IMG/VR virus record: IMGVR_UViG_2778261515_000012
Strand: one strand, 5' to 3'
Length of the DNA stretch: 12,989 nt
Origin: a virus
Lineage: Duplodnaviria > Heunggongvirae > Uroviricota > Caudoviricetes
The notes below the pieces were generated by a model. The model did not search any database, had not been told where the DNA came from, and worked only from the letters and a program-made list of their open reading frames with translations. The number at the start of each line of letters is the position of its first letter. Position 1 is the first letter of the stretch. This document shows positions 477 through 8,791 of the stretch, in pieces. Both the position numbers and the translations under genes were made by a program.

Positions 477-1169
477 ATGTTATATGCATTTAAGCTGGGC
501 AGAAAACTGCGTGGCGAGGAACCTTATTGCCCTGAAAAAGGCGGGAAAGGTGGCAGTTCTGATAAAAGCGCAAAGTATGCAGCAGAAGCTCAGAAGTATG
601 CCGCAGACCTGCAAAATCAGCAGTTCAACACCATCATGAACAACCTGAAGCCGTTTACTCCTCTGGCTGATAAGTATGTCGGCAGCCTCGAGAACTTATC
701 GTCTCTGGAAGGGCAAGGTCAGGCACTTAACCAGTATTACAACTCTCAGCAGTACAAAGATCTTGCTGGTCAGGCTCGCTATCAGAGTCTGGCGGCAGCG
801 GAAGCAACAGGTGGATTGGGTTCCACTGCAACCGGTAATCAGTTAGCAACAATCGCACCAACGCTTGGTCAGCAGTGGCTGTCTGGTCAGATGAACAACT
901 ACCAGAATCTGGCAAACGTTGGGCTTGGTGCTCTGCAAGGTCAGGCAAACGCAGGGCAGACATATGCCAACAACATGAGTCAGATTTCGCAGCAAAGTGC
1001 GGCTCTTGCAGCGGCAAATGCCAACAGACCATCAGCAATGCAATCTGCTATTAGCGGAGGTGCGTCTGGTGCTATTGCTGGGGCCGGACTTGCGAAATTA
1101 ATTGGTTCATCAACTCCGTGGGGGGCTGCGATCGGCGGCGGTCTTGGTCTGCTTGGCTCGTTGTTTTAA
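477..1169 (+). CDS. Ejection (injection) protein, P22 gp7-like
   Basis: ATG at 477 preceded by GGGAGA (466-471). 230 aa, matching the size I recall for P22 gp7 (about 229 aa). Gly/Ala/Gln-rich with a hydrophobic C-terminus. First of three co-directional tightly packed genes whose sizes match P22 gp7/gp20/gp16. Confidence 0.75.
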   Translation: MLYAFKLGRKLRGEEPYCPEKGGKGGSSDKSAKYAAEAQKYAADLQNQQFNTIMNNLKPFTPLADKYVGSLENLSSLEGQGQALNQYYNSQQYKDLAGQARYQSLAAAEATGGLGSTATGNQLATIAPTLGQQWLSGQMNNYQNLANVGLGALQGQANAGQTYANNMSQISQQSAALAAANANRPSAMQSAISGGASGAIAGAGLAKLIGSSTPWGAAIGGGLGLLGSLF

Positions 1170-1179
1170 GGGGTAATCA

Positions 1180-2565
1180 ATGGCTACGTGGCAACAGGGT
1201 ATTAATTCTGGTGGTTTTCTGGCTGGCATCGGTACGCAAAATGAGAATGCGCCAAAGGCAAGCGACATTAACGCAACGCTTGGTCTGATCCGCGAAAACA
1301 ATGAACTGGCTCGCTCAGGTGCAAATAACGTTAGTCTGACCGCGTTACGTGGTCTGGCTGGAGTTGCTGATATTTACAATCAGGAACAGCAACAGAAAGC
1401 GATTAGTGCGTTCAATAAGGTTCACGCTGATGCATGGGCTTCTGGTGATCCATCGGGACTATTTAAGTTTGCCCAGGAAAATCCAGCGTTTGTTGCACAG
1501 GCACAACAGGCGTTTTCCGGTCTTAATGAGCAGCAACGCAACGATATGGGCGATTTAGCCATGAGGGCTAACGTCGCTCTTTCTCAGGGACCGGAAGCCT
1601 ACAGTAAATTCATTACTGACAACAAGGACAGGTTAAATCGCGTTGGTGCTAATGCTGACTGGATGATTCAGACAGGTATCCAGAATCCAGAGCAGCTATC
1701 ACACATGCTGACTACTATGTCTCTCGGTGCACTTGGGCCAGAAAAGGCTTTTGCTGTTCAGGATAAGATGGTTGGTCGCCAGCAGGAGCAGCAAAGAATT
1801 AACGAAACCATTCGCAATAATGACATGACGAATGCGAGGGCTATTAGGGGGCAAAACCTTTCCTATCAGTCTGCAATGACCGGACACGGACTTGCAGCAG
1901 AAAGACTGGCACTTGATAAGCAGAAATTCGGTTTTGAAGTACAACAGGCACAAAAAAAGGCCGAGGAACTTATTAATGCAGCGCCAAAATTATCAGTGAA
2001 CATGGAAAAGGCTATAGAAAAATCAGCAGGTGATGCGGCAGCTAGTCGTAATGCTGCCGATTCAATGACAACGCTCGCTGACACGCTGGAGAAGGAGAAG
2101 CCAACTCCTGGTTTGTTCGGTAACGCTGAAAATATGTTCTCTAAGCTTACGGGGCAAGATAACTACCTCCGAGATATGCGGATTAGATTCAACCAACTAG
2201 CCAATGCGCAGGCAACCAAGCTTCTCCCTCCCGGCCCTGCATCAGATAAGGATATTGAGTTTGCAAGGAAAGGCATTCCAAGCGAAACGGATAATCCAAT
2301 GGTCATGGCTCGATGGTTAAGGGGTATGGCAAAAATGGAAAGTAATAACGCGAAGTTCAACGAGTTTAGGTCAGAGTGGATGAGTGCAAACGGCAGCCCT
2401 GGACAATCTGATCGCAACCGAAACATCATGGGGATGGATGTTAAGAAGGGTGAATCATTGAACTCTGCGGCAAAACGTTTTCTTTCCTCAAGTTATGGCG
2501 ATAGCCAACCTCAACAGCAATTGTCCGATGACGAATTAATTAGCAAATATCTCGGAGGGCAGTAA
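1180..2565 (+). CDS. Ejection protein, P22 gp20-like
   Basis: ATG at 1180 preceded by AAGGGG. 461 aa (P22 gp20 is about 471 aa from memory). Its stop overlaps the next start (TAATG at 2563-2567). Assigned by size and synteny. Confidence 0.75.
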
Positions 2566-4397
2566 TGGCTTATAGTCGTGAACAATTGATGACGGCGTTA
2601 AGGAATGCTGATGCTGCTGGTGATACTGAGGGAGCACGTCGCATTGCTCAGATGCTGTCTTCTGGTGATCAATCCACTCAAAACCAATCGCAGCCAGAAG
2701 AACAATCTCTGGTAGGAAAAGCTACTGACTGGCTCACAGGTGGTCAAAGTGCAGGGCAAATTGCAGAACAGGCTGGTCGTGGTCTGGTAAACATACCATT
2801 TGACGTATTGCAGGGTGGCGCAAGTCTGATTAATGCAACCAGTCAGGGGCTTGGTGGGCCAAAAGTATTAGATGATGTCTATCGTCCAGTCGATCGACCG
2901 ACAGACCCTTATGCGCAAGCTGGAGAAACAATTGGCGGGTATTTAGTTCCAGGAGTTGGAACGGCAGGAAGCATGGCTATTGGATCACTGGCAGAGGCCG
3001 CAAATCAGAAAGGCGATTTCGCACAAAATGCAGCTAAAAATGCCGGAGTTAACCTTGCCGCTCAGGGTGTTCTTTCCGCAGCAGCAAAGGGAATAGGGCG
3101 TGGAATAACGGCTATAAAAGGTGATATTGCGCCAGAAGTGGCGAAGAAAATTGCCACATCAGAATCGATGGGCGTGACACCAATGACATCTGATGTTATC
3201 CCGCCGAAAAATGCTTTCACTCGCGGCCTTACTCAGGATGCCGAGGGGGCTTTACTCGGGACAGGCTCAAAGCGAGCGGAGCAATATGCAACGCGTAGTA
3301 AGCTGGTAAGTAATTATTTTGACCGTTTTGGTGAGTACAACCCTGATGATGTGGTGAAATCTCTGACCACCACGTTAAGGGGGCGGAAGGATGCCGCTGG
3401 CGCTGTTATCAATGACGTCACCAATAAAATGGGTAATGCCGCAGTTGATACCACAAATACCATGAATGCTCTGAATACAGCGATCGCAAGACAGGAACGG
3501 CTTGGGACTTCAGCCAATCAAAGCCTGCTTACATCCTTGCGTAACCTACGTGAAGAATTAGCAAACCCTGCAACTGATTTGGATGTTACGTTTGATCTAT
3601 TGCGTCAGCACAGAACAGCATTTAGATCTAATGTTCAGGGAGATGCTATGGTCTTCCCCAACCAGGCAAAAGCAGCTACCAATATGGTAGAGAATGCAAT
3701 GTCAAAAGACCTTCGTAACGCAGTTGCAAAAAACCTCGGTGCTTCAGACGCAGCAAAATACCTTAAAGCAAATTCCGATTATGCAAACGTTTATAATAAG
3801 GTGCTTAATAAAAACATTGCTAACAAGCTCAACAAGGCAAGCAGTGAAGCCAGTCCTGAACTTATAAATACTGTTGTATTAAGCAGAAAACCATCTGACG
3901 TGAAACGAATCTGGAGCGCATTGGATGATAAAGGGAAAGATGCTATGCGTGCAGCTTACGTCAGCAAAATAGCGGAAAAGGCCGGTGACTCTCCAGCCAA
4001 GTTCATCACTGAAGTTAATAAGCTGAAATCTCAGTCAGGCGGTGAAATTTACAACACTATTTTTTCTGGAAAGCACATGAAAGAACTTGATGCTCTTCAT
4101 GAAGTTCTACAGCAAACAGCAAGGTCAGACACCGCAAATGTAGTAACTCAGACGGGGCAATCGCAAGCCAACAGGATAAGGACGATTGGCGCAACTGCGA
4201 CTCTTGGTGTATCAATGGGGCTTGAGGCTGGTTTTGGTGCAATGATGCGTTTGTATGAGTCCAAAGCCGCAAGGAATATGCTTCTTCGTTTGGCAAACAC
4301 CAAAGCAGGAACGCCAGCTTATGAAAGAGCGCTAAATAATGCTGCAAATGCGATACGCCCTATACTTTCAAGCCAGATTACAGCAGAACAGCAATAA
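2565..4397 (+). CDS. Ejection protein, P22 gp16-like
   Basis: ATG at 2565 preceded by GGAGGG and overlapping the upstream stop by 1 nt. 610 aa (P22 gp16 is about 609 aa from memory). Last gene of the ejection cassette. Confidence 0.75.
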
Positions 4398-4411
4398 AAG
4401 ATAAGATATAA

Positions 4412-4897
4412 CTACCTGATATTACTGCTACTGTTGCATGTTACCGTGTTTCCAAATCCTGAATTGCAGTTTGTATATGTGTCAACGCGTGTTGGATAGG
4501 GTTGAGTTATAACAGGCTGTCTCGCTTTTTGCTCGATCGCTTGCATTGTGTTTACAGCCTGATAATTCAATAAAGCCTGCTGGAATGCTTGGCTTTGCGC
4601 TATTTGTTGGGCTTGTTCTTGGCTTTGTAATTGAACATAAAGATTCTGAAGCTCAAGTCTTGCCTGTGCGTCACTTATCTTGCCTTCATCGACACCTTGC
4701 CCGAGCATCTTTGCAGCAAGGACATACAGCTTAGGTGTTGGTGCTGATGCCATGCGTGAGTCGTTCTTCACACTGGCATCAAGGCAATTAGCCATATCGC
4801 TAAGCTTTTGATAGCGTTGTTCGCAACTTGCTTGATAGTCACTTACTTTTGCGCATCCAACCAGCAGAAGCGGGATAATTAACAGTGATTTTTTCAT
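4412..4897 (-). CDS. Prophage accessory lipoprotein (moron); possible superinfection-exclusion function
   Basis: Minus-strand ATG at 4897 with AAGGAG about 10 nt upstream on the minus strand. N-terminus MKKSLLIIPLLLVGC is a signal peptide with lipobox L-V-G-C (Cys15). Gln-rich helical middle, Cys-containing C-terminus. Convergent with gp16 (14-bp gap). Confidence 0.7.
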   Translation of the reverse strand: MKKSLLIIPLLLVGCAKVSDYQASCEQRYQKLSDMANCLDASVKNDSRMASAPTPKLYVLAAKMLGQGVDEGKISDAQARLELQNLYVQLQSQEQAQQIAQSQAFQQALLNYQAVNTMQAIEQKARQPVITQPYPTRVDTYTNCNSGFGNTVTCNSSSNIR

Positions 4898-5269
4898 ATG
4901 GTTAACTCTCCTTAGTTTTGAGCAGGATACCAGATGATACTGTATTGGTGGAGTGGTGTGTGAAAACGTGTCAACGACAAACCATCCACAACTTGGACGA
5001 ATGATTTAGCAAAAAGTGCTATTTTGGGTGTTTAGTGTCATAGAAAAGTGAATAGCTCACTTTTCAACATTGCATGAAACTTGCAGGAAATGTGACATTA
5101 CCTTATAGGTAACTTCGGCGAAAATGCAGTAAATGTGAAACGTAATGATTTAAACGTGTCGAGAAAGTGGTTGTAAGTTAGCCTCTGAAGGATTGATGAC
5201 AGCTTTGTTATGGTATTAAATGCAACTTGACACAGTTGTATACATAGCTGCGGCTATCAAGATGGAGGT
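4898..5269. promoter_or_regulatory. Divergent intergenic control region between the lipoprotein gene and the Panacea-domain operon
   Basis: 372-bp AT-rich non-coding gap between divergent genes. Contains a perfect 9-bp inverted repeat GAAAAGTGA-N5-TCACTTTTC (5043-5065), TTACC-N5-GGTAA (5098-5112), a direct 9-bp repeat AAACGTGTC (4964-4972 and 5152-5160), and TTGACA at 5227-5232. No confident -10 element was found. Confidence 0.35.
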
Positions 5270-5275
5270 ATGTTT

Positions 5276-5719
5276 ATGCTCACTTGTTTTGATGTCGCCG
5301 ACTACTTCTTGGCGCATTGCGATGAAGAAAGTGGCGACATTATCTCTAACCTAAAAATTCAGAAGTTGACGTATTATGCCCAAGGGTTTTCTCTGGTTCT
5401 TCTGGGTAAGCCGCTATTTAATGAGAAAATTGAAGCCTGGATGCATGGGCCAGTAGTTCCTGAATTGTATCGTAAATATAGGGACTGTGGTAACGGAGCT
5501 TTACCTGCGCCAGAAAACTTTGACGCTAAAAAATTCAGTGAAGATGAAATTGAATTGCTGGATGAGGTGTATAAAGTTTATGGTCAGTTTTCTGCCTGGA
5601 AACTGCGCAATATGACTCACGAAGAGCAGCCATGGAAAGATGCTTACATTGAGGGTGCGGTTAGCCAAGAAATCACACTTGATTCTATGAAAGGTTTTTT
5701 CAAAACGTTAATTAACTGA
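5276..5719 (+). CDS. Panacea-domain (DUF4065, GepA/SocA-like) protein; putative antitoxin
   Basis: ORF is open from ATG 5270, but GGAGG at 5264-5268 is spaced correctly (7 nt) for the second ATG at 5276. Protein contains NLKIQKLTYYAQGF...IEAWMHGPVVPELYRKY, matching the signature of DUF4065/Panacea 'phage-associated protein' antitoxins as I recall it. No N-terminal HTH is evident. Confidence 0.7.
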   Translation: MLTCFDVADYFLAHCDEESGDIISNLKIQKLTYYAQGFSLVLLGKPLFNEKIEAWMHGPVVPELYRKYRDCGNGALPAPENFDAKKFSEDEIELLDEVYKVYGQFSAWKLRNMTHEEQPWKDAYIEGAVSQEITLDSMKGFFKTLIN

Positions 5720-5724
5720 CGTGT

Positions 5725-6147
5725 ATGTCTAGAGTTAAGGGAAGAATAAAACAGAGGGATAAAGAGAGCTCTGCTACTGTTGGCCTCTCTATCCATCACG
5801 AATCTCATGATGTAGACAAAAGTCCGCCTGTATTTTCTCTTAGATACCTACAAAAGGGGTATTGCCTAGATTGCTGCCAAAAGCATGAAAAGGCAGCATT
5901 TGCAGATAGGCTGTTCAGGTTAAGTCGGATGTCATGGGATGAGATACGAAAATCTGATAAACACGGGCTTGGGACGGAAAAAATTGCCAGAAACGCGATA
6001 AAAGCTCCGATTCCTAAGCATGTTACTCAAGATGTGGATTTCATTGCGTTCAGATTTTGCTCTAAGGCACCTATGGTTGGTTATAAGCTAGGAGCCACTT
6101 TTTATGTCTTATGGCTCGACAGGGAGTTCAAGCTATACAAGCACTAA
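5725..6147 (+). CDS. Hypothetical protein, partner of the Panacea-domain protein; candidate toxin or effector
   Basis: ATG at 5725 lies 5 nt after the upstream stop (TGA 5717-5719) with no Shine-Dalgarno, suggesting translational coupling. 140 aa, basic, with a Cys/His cluster (GYCLDCCQKHEK). The C-terminus (FIAFRF...TFYVLWLDREFKLYKH) loosely resembles C-termini of RelE/ParE-type toxins. Followed directly by an intrinsic terminator. Confidence 0.55.
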   Translation: MSRVKGRIKQRDKESSATVGLSIHHESHDVDKSPPVFSLRYLQKGYCLDCCQKHEKAAFADRLFRLSRMSWDEIRKSDKHGLGTEKIARNAIKAPIPKHVTQDVDFIAFRFCSKAPMVGYKLGATFYVLWLDREFKLYKH

Positions 6148-6150
6148 TAA

Positions 6151-6176
6151 AACCCACCGTCAGGTGGGTTTTTTGT
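6151..6176. terminator. Rho-independent terminator, probably bidirectional
   Basis: AACCCACC-gtca-GGTGGGTT stem-loop followed by TTTTTT on the plus strand, and preceded by an A-rich run (a T-tract for minus-strand transcripts). Sits between the + operon end (6147) and the minus-strand ORF end (6191). Confidence 0.6.
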
Positions 6177-6190
6177 TGGAGATAAAATGG

Positions 6191-6394
6191 TTAACCAAAT
6201 CGATCCTTAAAGCGCCTATCGCTGTTGCGTCTCTCCATTTTACTGTTGCAGTACGGACAAAGATGCTGTTTCTTTCCATCGATAGTCCATGTGAAGTACT
6301 TTTTCTTAAATCCAGCACCACAGATATCGCAACTTCTTGGTTTAAACATACTGGCTATGAAGATAAGAACAACAAATCCTATGATCCATTCCAT
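6191..6394 (-). CDS. Small membrane-anchored zinc-ribbon protein (hypothetical)
   Basis: 67 aa with an N-terminal hydrophobic helix (EWIIGFVVLIFIASMF) and CxxC...CxxC (CDIC...CPYC). Ends at the bidirectional terminator. RBS is weak. The overlapping plus-strand ORFs 6104-6412 and 6225-6425 run through the terminator and look spurious. Confidence 0.4.
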   Translation of the reverse strand: MEWIIGFVVLIFIASMFKPRSCDICGAGFKKKYFTWTIDGKKQHLCPYCNSKMERRNSDRRFKDRFG

Positions 6395-6535
6395 ATCATG
6401 TACCTGTTTTAACTTTATTTTTTGATTTTTAGGGATTAATCAGAAACTTTATCTTGCGATTAAGCAAAGCTACTAGCTAACAAAAGAGTGCGTATACAAT
6501 CAATCGTTTCACATCAACCTCAACAAGGAGAAATC

Positions 6536-6721
6536 ATGACCATAGAAGAACGTCTGAACAACATTGAGTTGAACCAAACCCTGCTTGACCAGCGACTTTC
6601 AGATCTTGAGCTTAAAGATCTTGATGCGCAAATATCAGAAGCAGAAGCCAAGCTCTCCAGCTTAAACCACCGCAAGAAGCAAATCCGCAACAGAATTACT
6701 CAGGGACGCGGAAGCTGTTGA
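6536..6721 (+). CDS. Small coiled-coil protein (hypothetical)
   Basis: AAGGAG at 6525-6530 with a 5-nt spacer to ATG 6536. The ORF track's 6488 start is a GTG without an RBS. 61 aa with helical heptad-like sequence. Its 3' end overlaps the convergent ORF 6696-6905 by 26 nt. Confidence 0.4.
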   Translation: MTIEERLNNIELNQTLLDQRLSDLELKDLDAQISEAEAKLSSLNHRKKQIRNRITQGRGSC

Positions 6722-6905
6722 GGTGGGATGCTAGGTCTCTATCGTTAAAATCAAGGCTGCTAATCATTTCATTGTAAATGGCGTTTTTATCTTCCATTGG
6801 CAGTCTTGAGTAAACCAGACACAGAGCATATTTCAGGGAGTTTAGCTCCTTCTCTAATTCTTCCTTGCTTGACGTTTTTGACTTAATAAGCTGTTTTTTA
6901 TTCAT
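6696..6905 (-). CDS. Hypothetical small protein, third gene of the leftward mnt operon
   Basis: Minus-strand ATG at 6905 overlaps the upstream gene's stop (ATGA) and has AAGGA about 6 nt upstream. 69 aa, soluble, helical. Confidence 0.5.
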   Translation of the reverse strand: MNKKQLIKSKTSSKEELEKELNSLKYALCLVYSRLPMEDKNAIYNEMISSLDFNDRDLASHLNSFRVPE

Positions 6906-7135
6906 TTTGCATCCTTACGATTCACATCTTTTGGTAGATACTTGTGAATTGGCCAATCCATGAACGCAAGCGCGAGCCACGTCACCACGTTAAAGCCAGG
7001 GATTGTTAAACATACAGCCATCTTCCAGTCAAAACCGGCCTTTTTGGATATTTTTAACGCAGGTATAAAAAAGATAAAAACGAAAAAAATCACCATAATA
7101 ATCAATGATAATGGCGACCCTTGTTGTTGCTCCAT
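6902..7135 (-). CDS. Small inner-membrane protein (two predicted TM helices), second gene of the mnt operon
   Basis: Minus-strand ATG at 7135, 2 nt after the mnt stop, with GGAGG 6 nt upstream on the minus strand. 77 aa with two hydrophobic segments (LSLIIMVIFFVFIFFIPAL and MAVCLTIPGFNVVTWLALAF). Confidence 0.6.
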   Translation of the reverse strand: MEQQQGSPLSLIIMVIFFVFIFFIPALKISKKAGFDWKMAVCLTIPGFNVVTWLALAFMDWPIHKYLPKDVNRKDAK

Positions 7136-7632: not shown

Positions 7633-7850
7633 GGTTTATTGAGGTTGATGAGATTGGCTATGAGAATGCACTTGGTAGAGGTAAATCTTTAGTTAACATT
7701 GATGGCATTGAATCGATAAGGAGTGGTGAATTTACGGAGATCAGAATGATGTCAGGCGGAATCATTCCTTGCCGTGACTCAGTAGAGTCAATCAAATCAA
7801 AAATGAGTGGTCAGTGGCTTTATAGCTACAGTGACTTACAAAAACGTTGA
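7629..7850 (+). CDS. Hypothetical protein translationally coupled to arc
   Basis: ATG at 7629 overlaps the arc stop (ATGA). 73 aa with no motif I recognise. Followed by an inverted repeat GAAGCCC...GGGCTTC (7849-7880). Confidence 0.5.
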   Translation: MRFIEVDEIGYENALGRGKSLVNIDGIESIRSGEFTEIRMMSGGIIPCRDSVESIKSKMSGQWLYSYSDLQKR

Positions 7851-7912
7851 AGCCCCAACTGCGGTAACAGTCAGGGCTTCGGTATCAACAAATCGGCTTA
7901 GGAAATATTGAC

Positions 7913-8263
7913 ATGAAAAGTATAGCAAAGGCACAAAACGATTTCACCATCTTCAAATTTGGCGACAGTGAAATTCGCGTCATTAACAAGTGCGGCGAGC
8001 CGTGGTTTGTAGCTAAAGATGTTTGTGATGCTTTAGCTTTGACTAACTCACGCAAGGCGCTTACTGCACTTGATGACGATGAAAAGGGAGTAACTTTAAG
8101 TTACACCCTTGGTGGTGAGCAGAATCTAAGCATTGTGAGCGAATCAGGTATGTATACATTGGTTCTGCGCTGCCGCGATGCAGTCAATAAAGGTTCAGTC
8201 CCACACAAATTCCGCAAGTGGGTAACAGCAGAAGTTCTGCCTTCAATTCGCAAACATGGCTAG
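7913..8263 (+). CDS. Antirepressor-like protein, Bro-N domain (N-terminal part, ends at in-frame TAG)
   Basis: AGGA RBS upstream of ATG 7913. Sequence FKFGDSEIRVINKCGEPWFVAKDVCDALALTN...GMYTLVLRCRDAV...FRKWVTAEVLPSIRKHG is a typical Bro-N/AntA N-terminal domain. Ends at amber TAG 8261-8263, inside the conserved IRK-x-G-x-Y motif. Confidence 0.7.
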   Translation: MKSIAKAQNDFTIFKFGDSEIRVINKCGEPWFVAKDVCDALALTNSRKALTALDDDEKGVTLSYTLGGEQNLSIVSESGMYTLVLRCRDAVNKGSVPHKFRKWVTAEVLPSIRKHG

Positions 8264-8323: not shown

Positions 8324-8791
8324 ATGCTGGTAGGAAAGAAAGGACTTCGCTATGACGATGCATACAATATGGTTCATCAGCGTTTTGGTATTGACAGCAT
8401 TGATGAACTTTCAATTGAACAAATCCCGCTGGCCGTAGAGTACATCCACAGGGTAGTGCTTGAAGGTGAGTTCATTGGCAAACAAGAGAAGAAAACCAAC
8501 GAGCTTTCTGCAAAAGAAGCAAACAGCCTTGTATGGTTATGGGATTATGCCAACCGCTCACAGGCATTATTCCGCGAACTGTATCCGGCGCTAAAACAAA
8601 TTCAATCGAACTATTCCGGCAGATGCTACGACTACGGTCATGAATTCTCGTATGTTATCGGAATGGCGAGAGACGTTTTAATAAACCACACACGAGATGT
8701 TGATATCAATGAGCCAGACGGACCAACGAATCTTTCCGCATGGATGAGACTTAAGAATAAAGAATTACCTCCTTCAGTACATAACTACTGA
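8324..8791 (+). CDS. Antirepressor-like C-terminal part (same frame as 7913-8263)
   Basis: Same reading frame as the Bro-N ORF; the only stop between them is TAG 8261-8263 and the 20 codons from 8264 to 8323 are open. No RBS before ATG 8324. The two parts together are 293 codons, about the size of P22 Ant (300 aa). Followed by a terminator. Confidence 0.55.

Follow-up and report, generated by a model that had tools for sequence, protein, structure and literature searches.

A Panacea-paired candidate toxin with a predicted RelE-type fold in a P22-like prophage of Escherichia coli

The PanA/partner pair and its prophage setting

The window, i.e., the whole 12,989-nt stretch of DNA that was analysed, derives from an E. 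coli prophage of P22-like (Lederbergvirus) type, of which it forms the right arm; near-identical DNA is found in Escherichia phages E212 and EC.P3, and 34 complete E. coli genomes have it in prophages. A pair of ORFs sharing the same orientation sits between its last injection gene and the immI region and is preceded by a non-coding stretch of about 370 nt. At the end of the window, a tRNA-Arg(CCT) adjoins a gene of the formate/nitrite-transporter family. The main features are the following:

477-4397: injection-protein genes
4905..5269, (+): non-coding leader/promoter region of the cassette, delimited by alignment and sliding-window identity
5276..5719, (+): PanA, stand-alone Panacea (DUF4065/SocA-like) antitoxin gene; Pfam PF13274 (SocA_Panacea), E 2.2e-24
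5713..5727, (+): junction, with TAA 5713-5715 in the partner frame, TGA 5717-5719 as the PanA stop and ATG 5725
5725..6147, (+): partner ORF (putative PanT, cluster T1 type), ATG start, TAA end, 140 aa, pI 9.7
5725..5814, (+): Lys/Arg-rich N-terminal tail, residues 1-30, predicted to be disordered, variable alignment columns
5815..6144, (+): core with predicted RelE/BECR fold, residues 31-140 (strand, two helices, four more strands)
6151..6178, (+): Rho-independent terminator (AACCCACC-GTCA-GGTGGGTT followed by a T run), -18.6 kcal/mol, z -4.26
Downstream of the PanA/partner pair: mnt, arc, sar RNA and a seemingly split ant
7845-7911, (-): sar antisense RNA, as in the immI region of P22 (Rfam, 69.6 bits)
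Elsewhere within the window: integrase gene, and tailspike gene whose product has the head-binding domain of P22
11907-11981, (-): tRNA-Arg(CCT) beside the integrase gene, marking the attachment site

The partner gene is real and conserved across phyla. The initial annotation had read the ORF as 5725-6147 on the (+) strand, and its coordinates, frame and start were all confirmed, ATG 5725 being the first start after TAA 5713-5715; initiation at one of the later in-frame starts (codons 69, 104 and 117) would remove the first strand and helix of the protein. The intact ORF recurs in two sequenced phages at 98.6% identity and matches phrog_8366 (E 7e-75). A word-indexed search recovered 258 homologues and an exhaustive profile search of public data recovered 1,455 cluster representatives at 50% identity (E ≤0.001), the best 150 of which are stand-alone proteins, nearly all of 130-150 aa, with a Pfam domain in none. 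A homologue of the partner protein, 39% identical, was also observed in seven temperate Pseudomonas aeruginosa phages, indicating that this type of cassette is not restricted to P22-like phages. In RefSeq E. coli genomes carrying the window allele (UMNF18, UMNK88), PGAP omits the partner ORF; in UMNK88 it instead annotates a 102-aa ORF (window 6104-6412) that runs across the 3′ end of the partner gene and the terminator. The sister allele is annotated by PGAP as a 139-aa protein (WP_032219545.1).

The PanA ORF begins with ATG 5270, just 1 nt from a GGAGG sequence (5264-5268). Because ATG 5276 has this GGAGG at a spacing of 7 nt and yields a start like that of its homologues (MLTC...), PanA probably begins at ATG 5276 and is a 147-aa protein of pI 4.8; the start chosen by PGAP in the Emek-type allele is the equivalent of ATG 5276. 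Against the NCBIfam model SocA_antitoxin, PanA scored under the cut-off. Its stop codon lies 5 nt before the partner ATG 5725, and the two proteins contrast in charge, the acidic PanA facing a partner of pI 9.7.

Upstream of the genes, the leader is 95-100% identical over 4914-5153 to that of the cassette of phage Emek, while the proteins encoded behind it are 57-70% identical. A full-length leader is carried by 82 complete E. coli genomes, of which 34 have the window allele and 48 the Emek allele. An Rfam search with the leader returned no family, and its predicted fold is weak and not significant. The leader also contains a direct repeat, TGCAG[G/T]AAATGTGA, at 5082 and 5125, and short palindromes seen by eye without a tool (GAAAAGTGA..TCACTTTTC; TTACCTTATAGGTAA). 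At the other end, the terminator following the partner gene was missed by a simple terminator scan; phage Emek has the same element, annotated there as a terminator.

Several neighbours deserve a brief mention. On the (-) strand at 4412-4897, a gene for a 161-aa predicted lipoprotein (lipobox LVGC; phrog_6067, unknown function) occupies the position of sieA in P22, where Emek has an unrelated gene. Convergent with the cassette terminator, a 67-aa ORF at 6191-6394 (-) combines a hydrophobic N-terminal helix with a CxxC...CxxC zinc-ribbon pattern and gives weak family matches only. The ant gene is seemingly split into a Bro-N ORF (7913-8263, 116 aa) and a P22_AR_C ORF (8324-8791, 155 aa). Related prophages have ant as a single ORF of about 300 aa, and ant may be disrupted in the window.

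Pairing, translational coupling and the T1 cluster

Conservation of the pair was assessed in 80 related loci taken from one-genome-per-species contigs. Pairing with PanA is invariant among the evaluable loci: in 78 of the 80, the gene immediately upstream, in the same orientation, is PanA, and the remaining two are cut by contig ends (78/78 evaluable). Five loci checked by hand, from a cyanobacterium, an archaeon and proteobacteria, likewise all have PanA upstream. The partner is thus Panacea-adjacent, taken as a distance of at most 100 nt conserved across species, with a 5-nt gap in the window and adjacency at 78/78 loci.

Among 76 loci from many phyla in which both starts could be placed, the PanA-partner junction ranges from -20 to +23 nt. 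An SD core is present in front of 6/76 partner genes versus 46/76 PanA genes, and is absent from 70 and 30 of them, respectively, in a set of loci in which many are from related cyanobacteria and start codons were picked by rule. The initial annotation had reported a missing SD at ATG 5725, and indeed no SD core of at least 4 nt occurs in the 20 nt upstream of this codon (ACGTTAATTAACTGACGTGT); since 70 of the 76 partner genes have no SD core either, the missing ribosome-binding site is a trait of the family. Folding of the junction revealed no hairpin that would mask or sequester the partner ATG (z -0.54). The absence of an SD together with the tight junction fits translational coupling by termination-reinitiation. 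The proposal that the partner depends on the Panacea gene for its translation, made originally from this one locus, is now backed by the comparative loci, with their invariant upstream PanA, tight junctions and few SDs, and these sequence comparisons suggest that such coupling would operate here.

Pairs of this kind have been described before. Kurata et al. (2022) catalogued 88 toxin clusters located beside Panacea genes (PMC8832971), and the entries of cluster T1, the first in Dataset S1, include the pair of Salmonella phage vB_SemP_Emek, an E. coli MOD1 pair and pairs from many cyanobacteria and from Mycoplasma/Mollicutes (PMC8832971). The Emek toxin, orf161 (YP_006560566.1), shares 57% identity with the window ORF over the core (E 2e-48), and the Emek PanA (YP_006560565.1) is 70% identical to the PanA of the window. 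Because this homologous pair, at the same locus, is listed under T1, the window ORF is, by homology, assigned as a T1-type PanT. In Emek as in the window, a stand-alone PanA lies upstream, antitoxin first, between gene 16 and mnt, with leader and terminator in common and a different coding allele; the T1 cluster also has the same broad taxonomic spread as the window family, cyanobacteria and Mollicutes included. This class of toxin-antitoxin systems was therefore already catalogued in 2022, and the window allele adds a member to it. No later literature characterising PanT T1 or linking T1 to NsnC, the effector of the Menshen defence system, was found; Kurata et al. and Li et al. draw no link between the PanA-paired and Menshen contexts (PMC8832971, PMC12065111), and neither the T1 family nor Panacea pairing comes up in the NetFlax supplements or the Gerdes RelE/ParE survey.

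Published toxicity data on T1 are mixed. The T1 toxins of Emek, E. coli MOD1 and Clostridium cadaveris are labelled “mRNase”, as a prediction, in Table S1 (PMC8832971). Those of Emek and E. coli MOD1, the closest homologues with a toxicity test, were scored “not toxic” when over-expressed in E. coli (PMC8832971), and the C. cadaveris toxin was toxic but was not neutralised by its PanA (PMC8832971). The initial annotation had held that an absence of growth inhibition would speak against a toxin, and this partly applies, inasmuch as two homologues gave that result; the weight of the Emek result depends, however, on the protein that was expressed. The Emek toxin is annotated with 161 aa, starting 62 nt within panA (Emek locus 2090-2575), and 22 codons later an ATG located 4 nt past the PanA stop opens a reading frame of the family-typical 139 aa, the length that PGAP assigns to the identical Emek allele in E. 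coli. The 161-aa annotation thus probably carries a wrong N-terminal extension of 22 residues. The accession used in the toxicity test is the 161-aa annotation (PMC8832971). Because the construct tested had 22 extra N-terminal residues, the Emek negative may be technical; with a probably mis-started construct, it weakens the toxin claim and does not settle it.

Comparison of the two phages also delimits the cassette. The window and Emek are unrelated outside about 4905-6178. Within it, the leader matches at 95-100% over its first 250 nt; panA begins at 82-92% identity (5′ end) and, from its 3′ end into the 5′ half of panT, identity is 38-50%, rising again to 92% in the last 60 nt plus terminator; in a megablast search with the window sequence, the Emek coding part was too diverged to match. 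Since both alleles share their own leader and terminator, and since the 82 genomes with the leader divide into 34 and 48, the cassette is a self-contained moron existing as two diverged alleles. Divergence between the alleles is steepest in the region encoding the C-terminus of PanA and the tail of the toxin, which may reflect either exchange between the alleles by recombination or diversifying selection acting on an interface.

Predicted fold, homology and conserved residues

An AlphaFold model built from 38 sequences is confident for residues 30-140 (pLDDT >93) and consists of a disordered basic tail and, after it, a strand, a pair of helices and four more strands. The tail (pLDDT <50 over residues 1-25) is where the alleles of the two phages differ most (38-50% nucleotide identity). 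The remainder of the model displays the architecture of the RelE superfamily, i.e., a strand and a pair of helices with an antiparallel sheet that can be superposed on RelE-type toxins, and the core is therefore shown, at the level of a predicted structure, to adopt a RelE/BECR fold. In structural comparisons, RNase-type members scored 5.2-7.6 and ParE lower, the best match being RelE of T. thermophilus. Foldseek against the PDB ranked RelE-type toxin families first, at a level that is not significant (best E 0.5), and Foldseek against viral structures returned no match.

Sequence-based searches gave a different picture. For 38 family members, Pfam gave nothing beyond noise at E values up to 10 and in particular no RelE-type family (ParE_toxin, YafQ_toxin, HigB-like, YoeB), and neither the protein nor its profile matched any PDB chain sequence. 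With hhalign, probabilities were <1.2% against single HigB, YafQ and YoeB sequences and <1% against profiles of YafQ and YoeB made from new homologue searches, the sole aligned piece being MVGYR against WKGYRDAH of YafQ. The profile-profile comparison of HHpred type that had been suggested as a check thus came out negative across Pfam, PDB sequences and the YafQ and YoeB profiles. Of the loose resemblance to RelE/ParE toxins noticed at the outset, the part concerning the fold stands, as predicted for the core, whereas similarity to the classical families in sequence or profile does not.

On the other hand, the core can be shown by sequence profile to be homologous to the C-terminal effector domain of NsnC: positions 185-280 of the 284 in the PADLOC NsnC model are matched by 38/38 members (best E 1.4e-11). 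The effector domain of NsnC was named “PB-BECR1” by Li et al. (2025), with YafQ as its best structural match (PMC12065111). Because these authors call it the majority type, we assume that the C-terminus of the PADLOC model is the PB-BECR1 domain. The homology extends over about 100 residues, with a BECR/RelE fold in both proteins, and the H-R-H triad reported for NsnC is compatible with the conserved His, Arg and C-terminal His of the partner (PMC12065111). NsnC differs in having an N-terminal PIN-like domain, whereas the window partner is free-standing, carries a basic tail and would be controlled by PanA instead. No ORF large enough to be nsnA (ParB-DUF262) or nsnB (ABC ATPase) is present within 4400-7100, the listed ORFs of the window encoding phage structural and immunity functions, and the neighbours at five other partner loci are unrelated to nsnA/nsnB. 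The partner also aligns with the NCBIfam family NF046006 (MAG6450_fam) of Mycoplasma, with homology over residues 41-137. The score of 24.3 bits (E 3.5e-5) is under the curated cut-off of 40, which makes the partner family a sister subfamily of MAG6450_fam rather than a member; MAG6450_fam is matched by 36/38 members, all below cut-off, and Mycoplasma proteins also occur in T1.

Residue conservation was examined in an alignment of 141 sequences, comprising the window protein and 140 representatives from clustering at 50% identity. Among the polar residues, E85, R110, D132, Y138 and H140 are near-invariant. The C-terminal pattern singled out by the initial annotation is real and strongly conserved in this alignment (R110 in 136/140, G119 in 137/141, D132 in 137/139, Y138 in 136/138, H140 in 132/134). 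Further conserved core residues are W71 and G83, and R79-H80 and R/K121 are kept in >80% of the sequences. In the model, E85 follows helix 2, the first two long strands carry R110 and R/K121, and Y138 and H140 are at the end of the chain. In YoeB, the residues proposed as equivalents are E46, which follows helix 2, R65, H83 and Y84, the last two ending the chain; the C-terminus of HigB, ..DYH, likewise ends in Y91-H92. As in YoeB and HigB, the partner has a Glu after helix 2, an Arg in the sheet and Tyr/His at its C-terminal end, the proposed mapping onto YoeB, HigB and RelE catalytic positions being made by secondary-structure order, not by superposition. R133, the nearest counterpart of R81 in RelE, is not conserved among the 141 sequences. 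Together, E85, R110, D132, Y138 and the C-terminal H140 fit a candidate RNase active site in the modelled fold.

The Cys/His cluster noted earlier fared less well. The motif GYCLDCCQKHEK exists in the window protein (C47, C50, C51 and H54) but is not conserved: C51 is kept in 126/141 sequences, a Cys occurs at position 47 in 62, and the most frequent residues are K/D/N at position 50 and D/E at position 54. A metal-binding cluster at GYCLDCCQKHEK was consequently rejected, only C51 being conserved among the 141 sequences.

Seen against the classical toxins RelE, YoeB, HigB and YafQ, the partner has in common the predicted fold, the strand order, a small basic protein and an antitoxin-first operon. 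It differs from them by about 30 extra N-terminal residues, a long loop at 88-105 and the lack of detectable sequence or profile similarity, and by its antitoxin, which is a Panacea protein rather than RelB, YefM, HigA or DinJ. With the ParE gyrase poisons it shares the superfamily fold, but structural scores are lower and the partner keeps catalytic-type residues.

Proposed function, competing readings and significance

An RNase toxin function of the partner is plausible, and we infer its RNase activity, its RNA target, its neutralisation by PanA, the coupling of the two genes and their biological role along the following lines. The ORF would be PanT, the toxin half of a two-gene PanAT toxin-antitoxin cassette, itself a 1.27-kb moron (leader, panA, panT and terminator) in the immI-proximal region of a P22-like prophage at argW in E. 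coli. PanT would most likely be an endoribonuclease whose candidate active-site residues, E85, R110, R/K121, D132, Y138, H140 and possibly R79-H80, are predicted to lie on the strands and the C-terminus where YoeB, HigB, RelE and YafQ have catalytic residues, and it would be bound and neutralised by the acidic, stand-alone PanA. Given that panT has no ribosome-binding site and that the gap is of 5 nt, it would be translated solely by ribosomes fresh from PanA; with its synthesis tied in this way to that of PanA, free toxin would never be produced first. In a lysogen, the pair would most likely act as a phage-defence or addiction module. As a whole, the reading of a RelE-fold RNase toxin, neutralised by PanA binding and made only by coupled translation, is the one that we consider reasonably probable.

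Much of the same evidence can be read in another way, which is possible though rather unlikely: PanT may be a latent defence effector, i.e., an RNase that is harmless alone and either becomes active on a phage cue sensed by PanA or cuts phage RNA only, the pair then being an infection-triggered system with a logic nearer to that of Menshen than to that of RelBE. The homologues of Emek and MOD1 found not to be toxic in E. coli agree with such a view, even if the 22 extra residues of the 161-aa Emek construct leave room for a technical negative and the C. cadaveris T1 member is toxic. The effector domain of Menshen to which PanT is homologous is restrained by a sensor and an ATPase, and Panacea has been suggested as a sensor by Ernits et al. 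(PMC10440598). That the cassette is a prophage moron provided with a conserved leader of its own and occurs in temperate Pseudomonas phages also suits a defence role, but strict pairing and coupling are what would be expected if the free protein were harmful. Carried to its conclusion, this argument would make PanT T1 proteins free-standing Menshen effector RNases, harmless until PanA senses phage, and the cassette, whose leader is near-invariant over 250 nt and whose PanA/PanT interface diverges fast, a triggered anti-phage module rather than an addiction toxin, a proposition that would account for the “not toxic” homologues and that we advance tentatively.

The other alternatives have far less in their favour. 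A ParE-like protein that poisons DNA gyrase or binds some other protein target would share the superfamily fold, but is improbable given the higher scores of RNase-type members (5.2-7.6), the retention of the Glu/Arg/Tyr/His set typical of RelE-type RNases with its C-terminal His, the lack of a ParE-like C-terminal extension and the sequence homology to a domain grouped with RNase effectors. The omission of the gene by PGAP in UMNF18 and UMNK88 and its missing SD might suggest a silent or decaying ORF that is unexpressed in the strain; this is very improbable for an ORF that is intact, is 98.6% identical in two phages, belongs to a family conserved across phyla, keeps the near-invariant residues and has a sister allele that PGAP does annotate. 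Least credible, to the point of being negligible, is a zinc-binding or regulatory protein built on the GYCLDCCQKHEK Cys/His cluster: the motif exists in the window allele, but only C51 is conserved, no zinc-finger family is matched and in the model the motif opens helix 1 of a RelE-type fold rather than forming a knuckle or ribbon.

What is new here is modest and consists of the fold assignment, the candidate active-site residues, the link to NsnC and two annotation problems. The latter concern a gene that is absent from RefSeq in the E. coli genomes carrying the window allele, and a published negative for Emek toxicity obtained with an ORF that was probably mis-started and extended. A predicted fold and a candidate active site are thereby supplied for the largest, still uncharacterised cluster of Panacea-paired toxins, and the T1 cluster and the Menshen defence system are shown to have an effector domain in common. 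If RNase activity and control by PanA hold true, PanAT would amount to a compact cassette for defence or addiction, borne by prophages and found in 82/5,426 complete E. coli genomes (about 1.5%). If, instead, the cassette proves to be a triggered module, two defence systems would be linked through a common effector.
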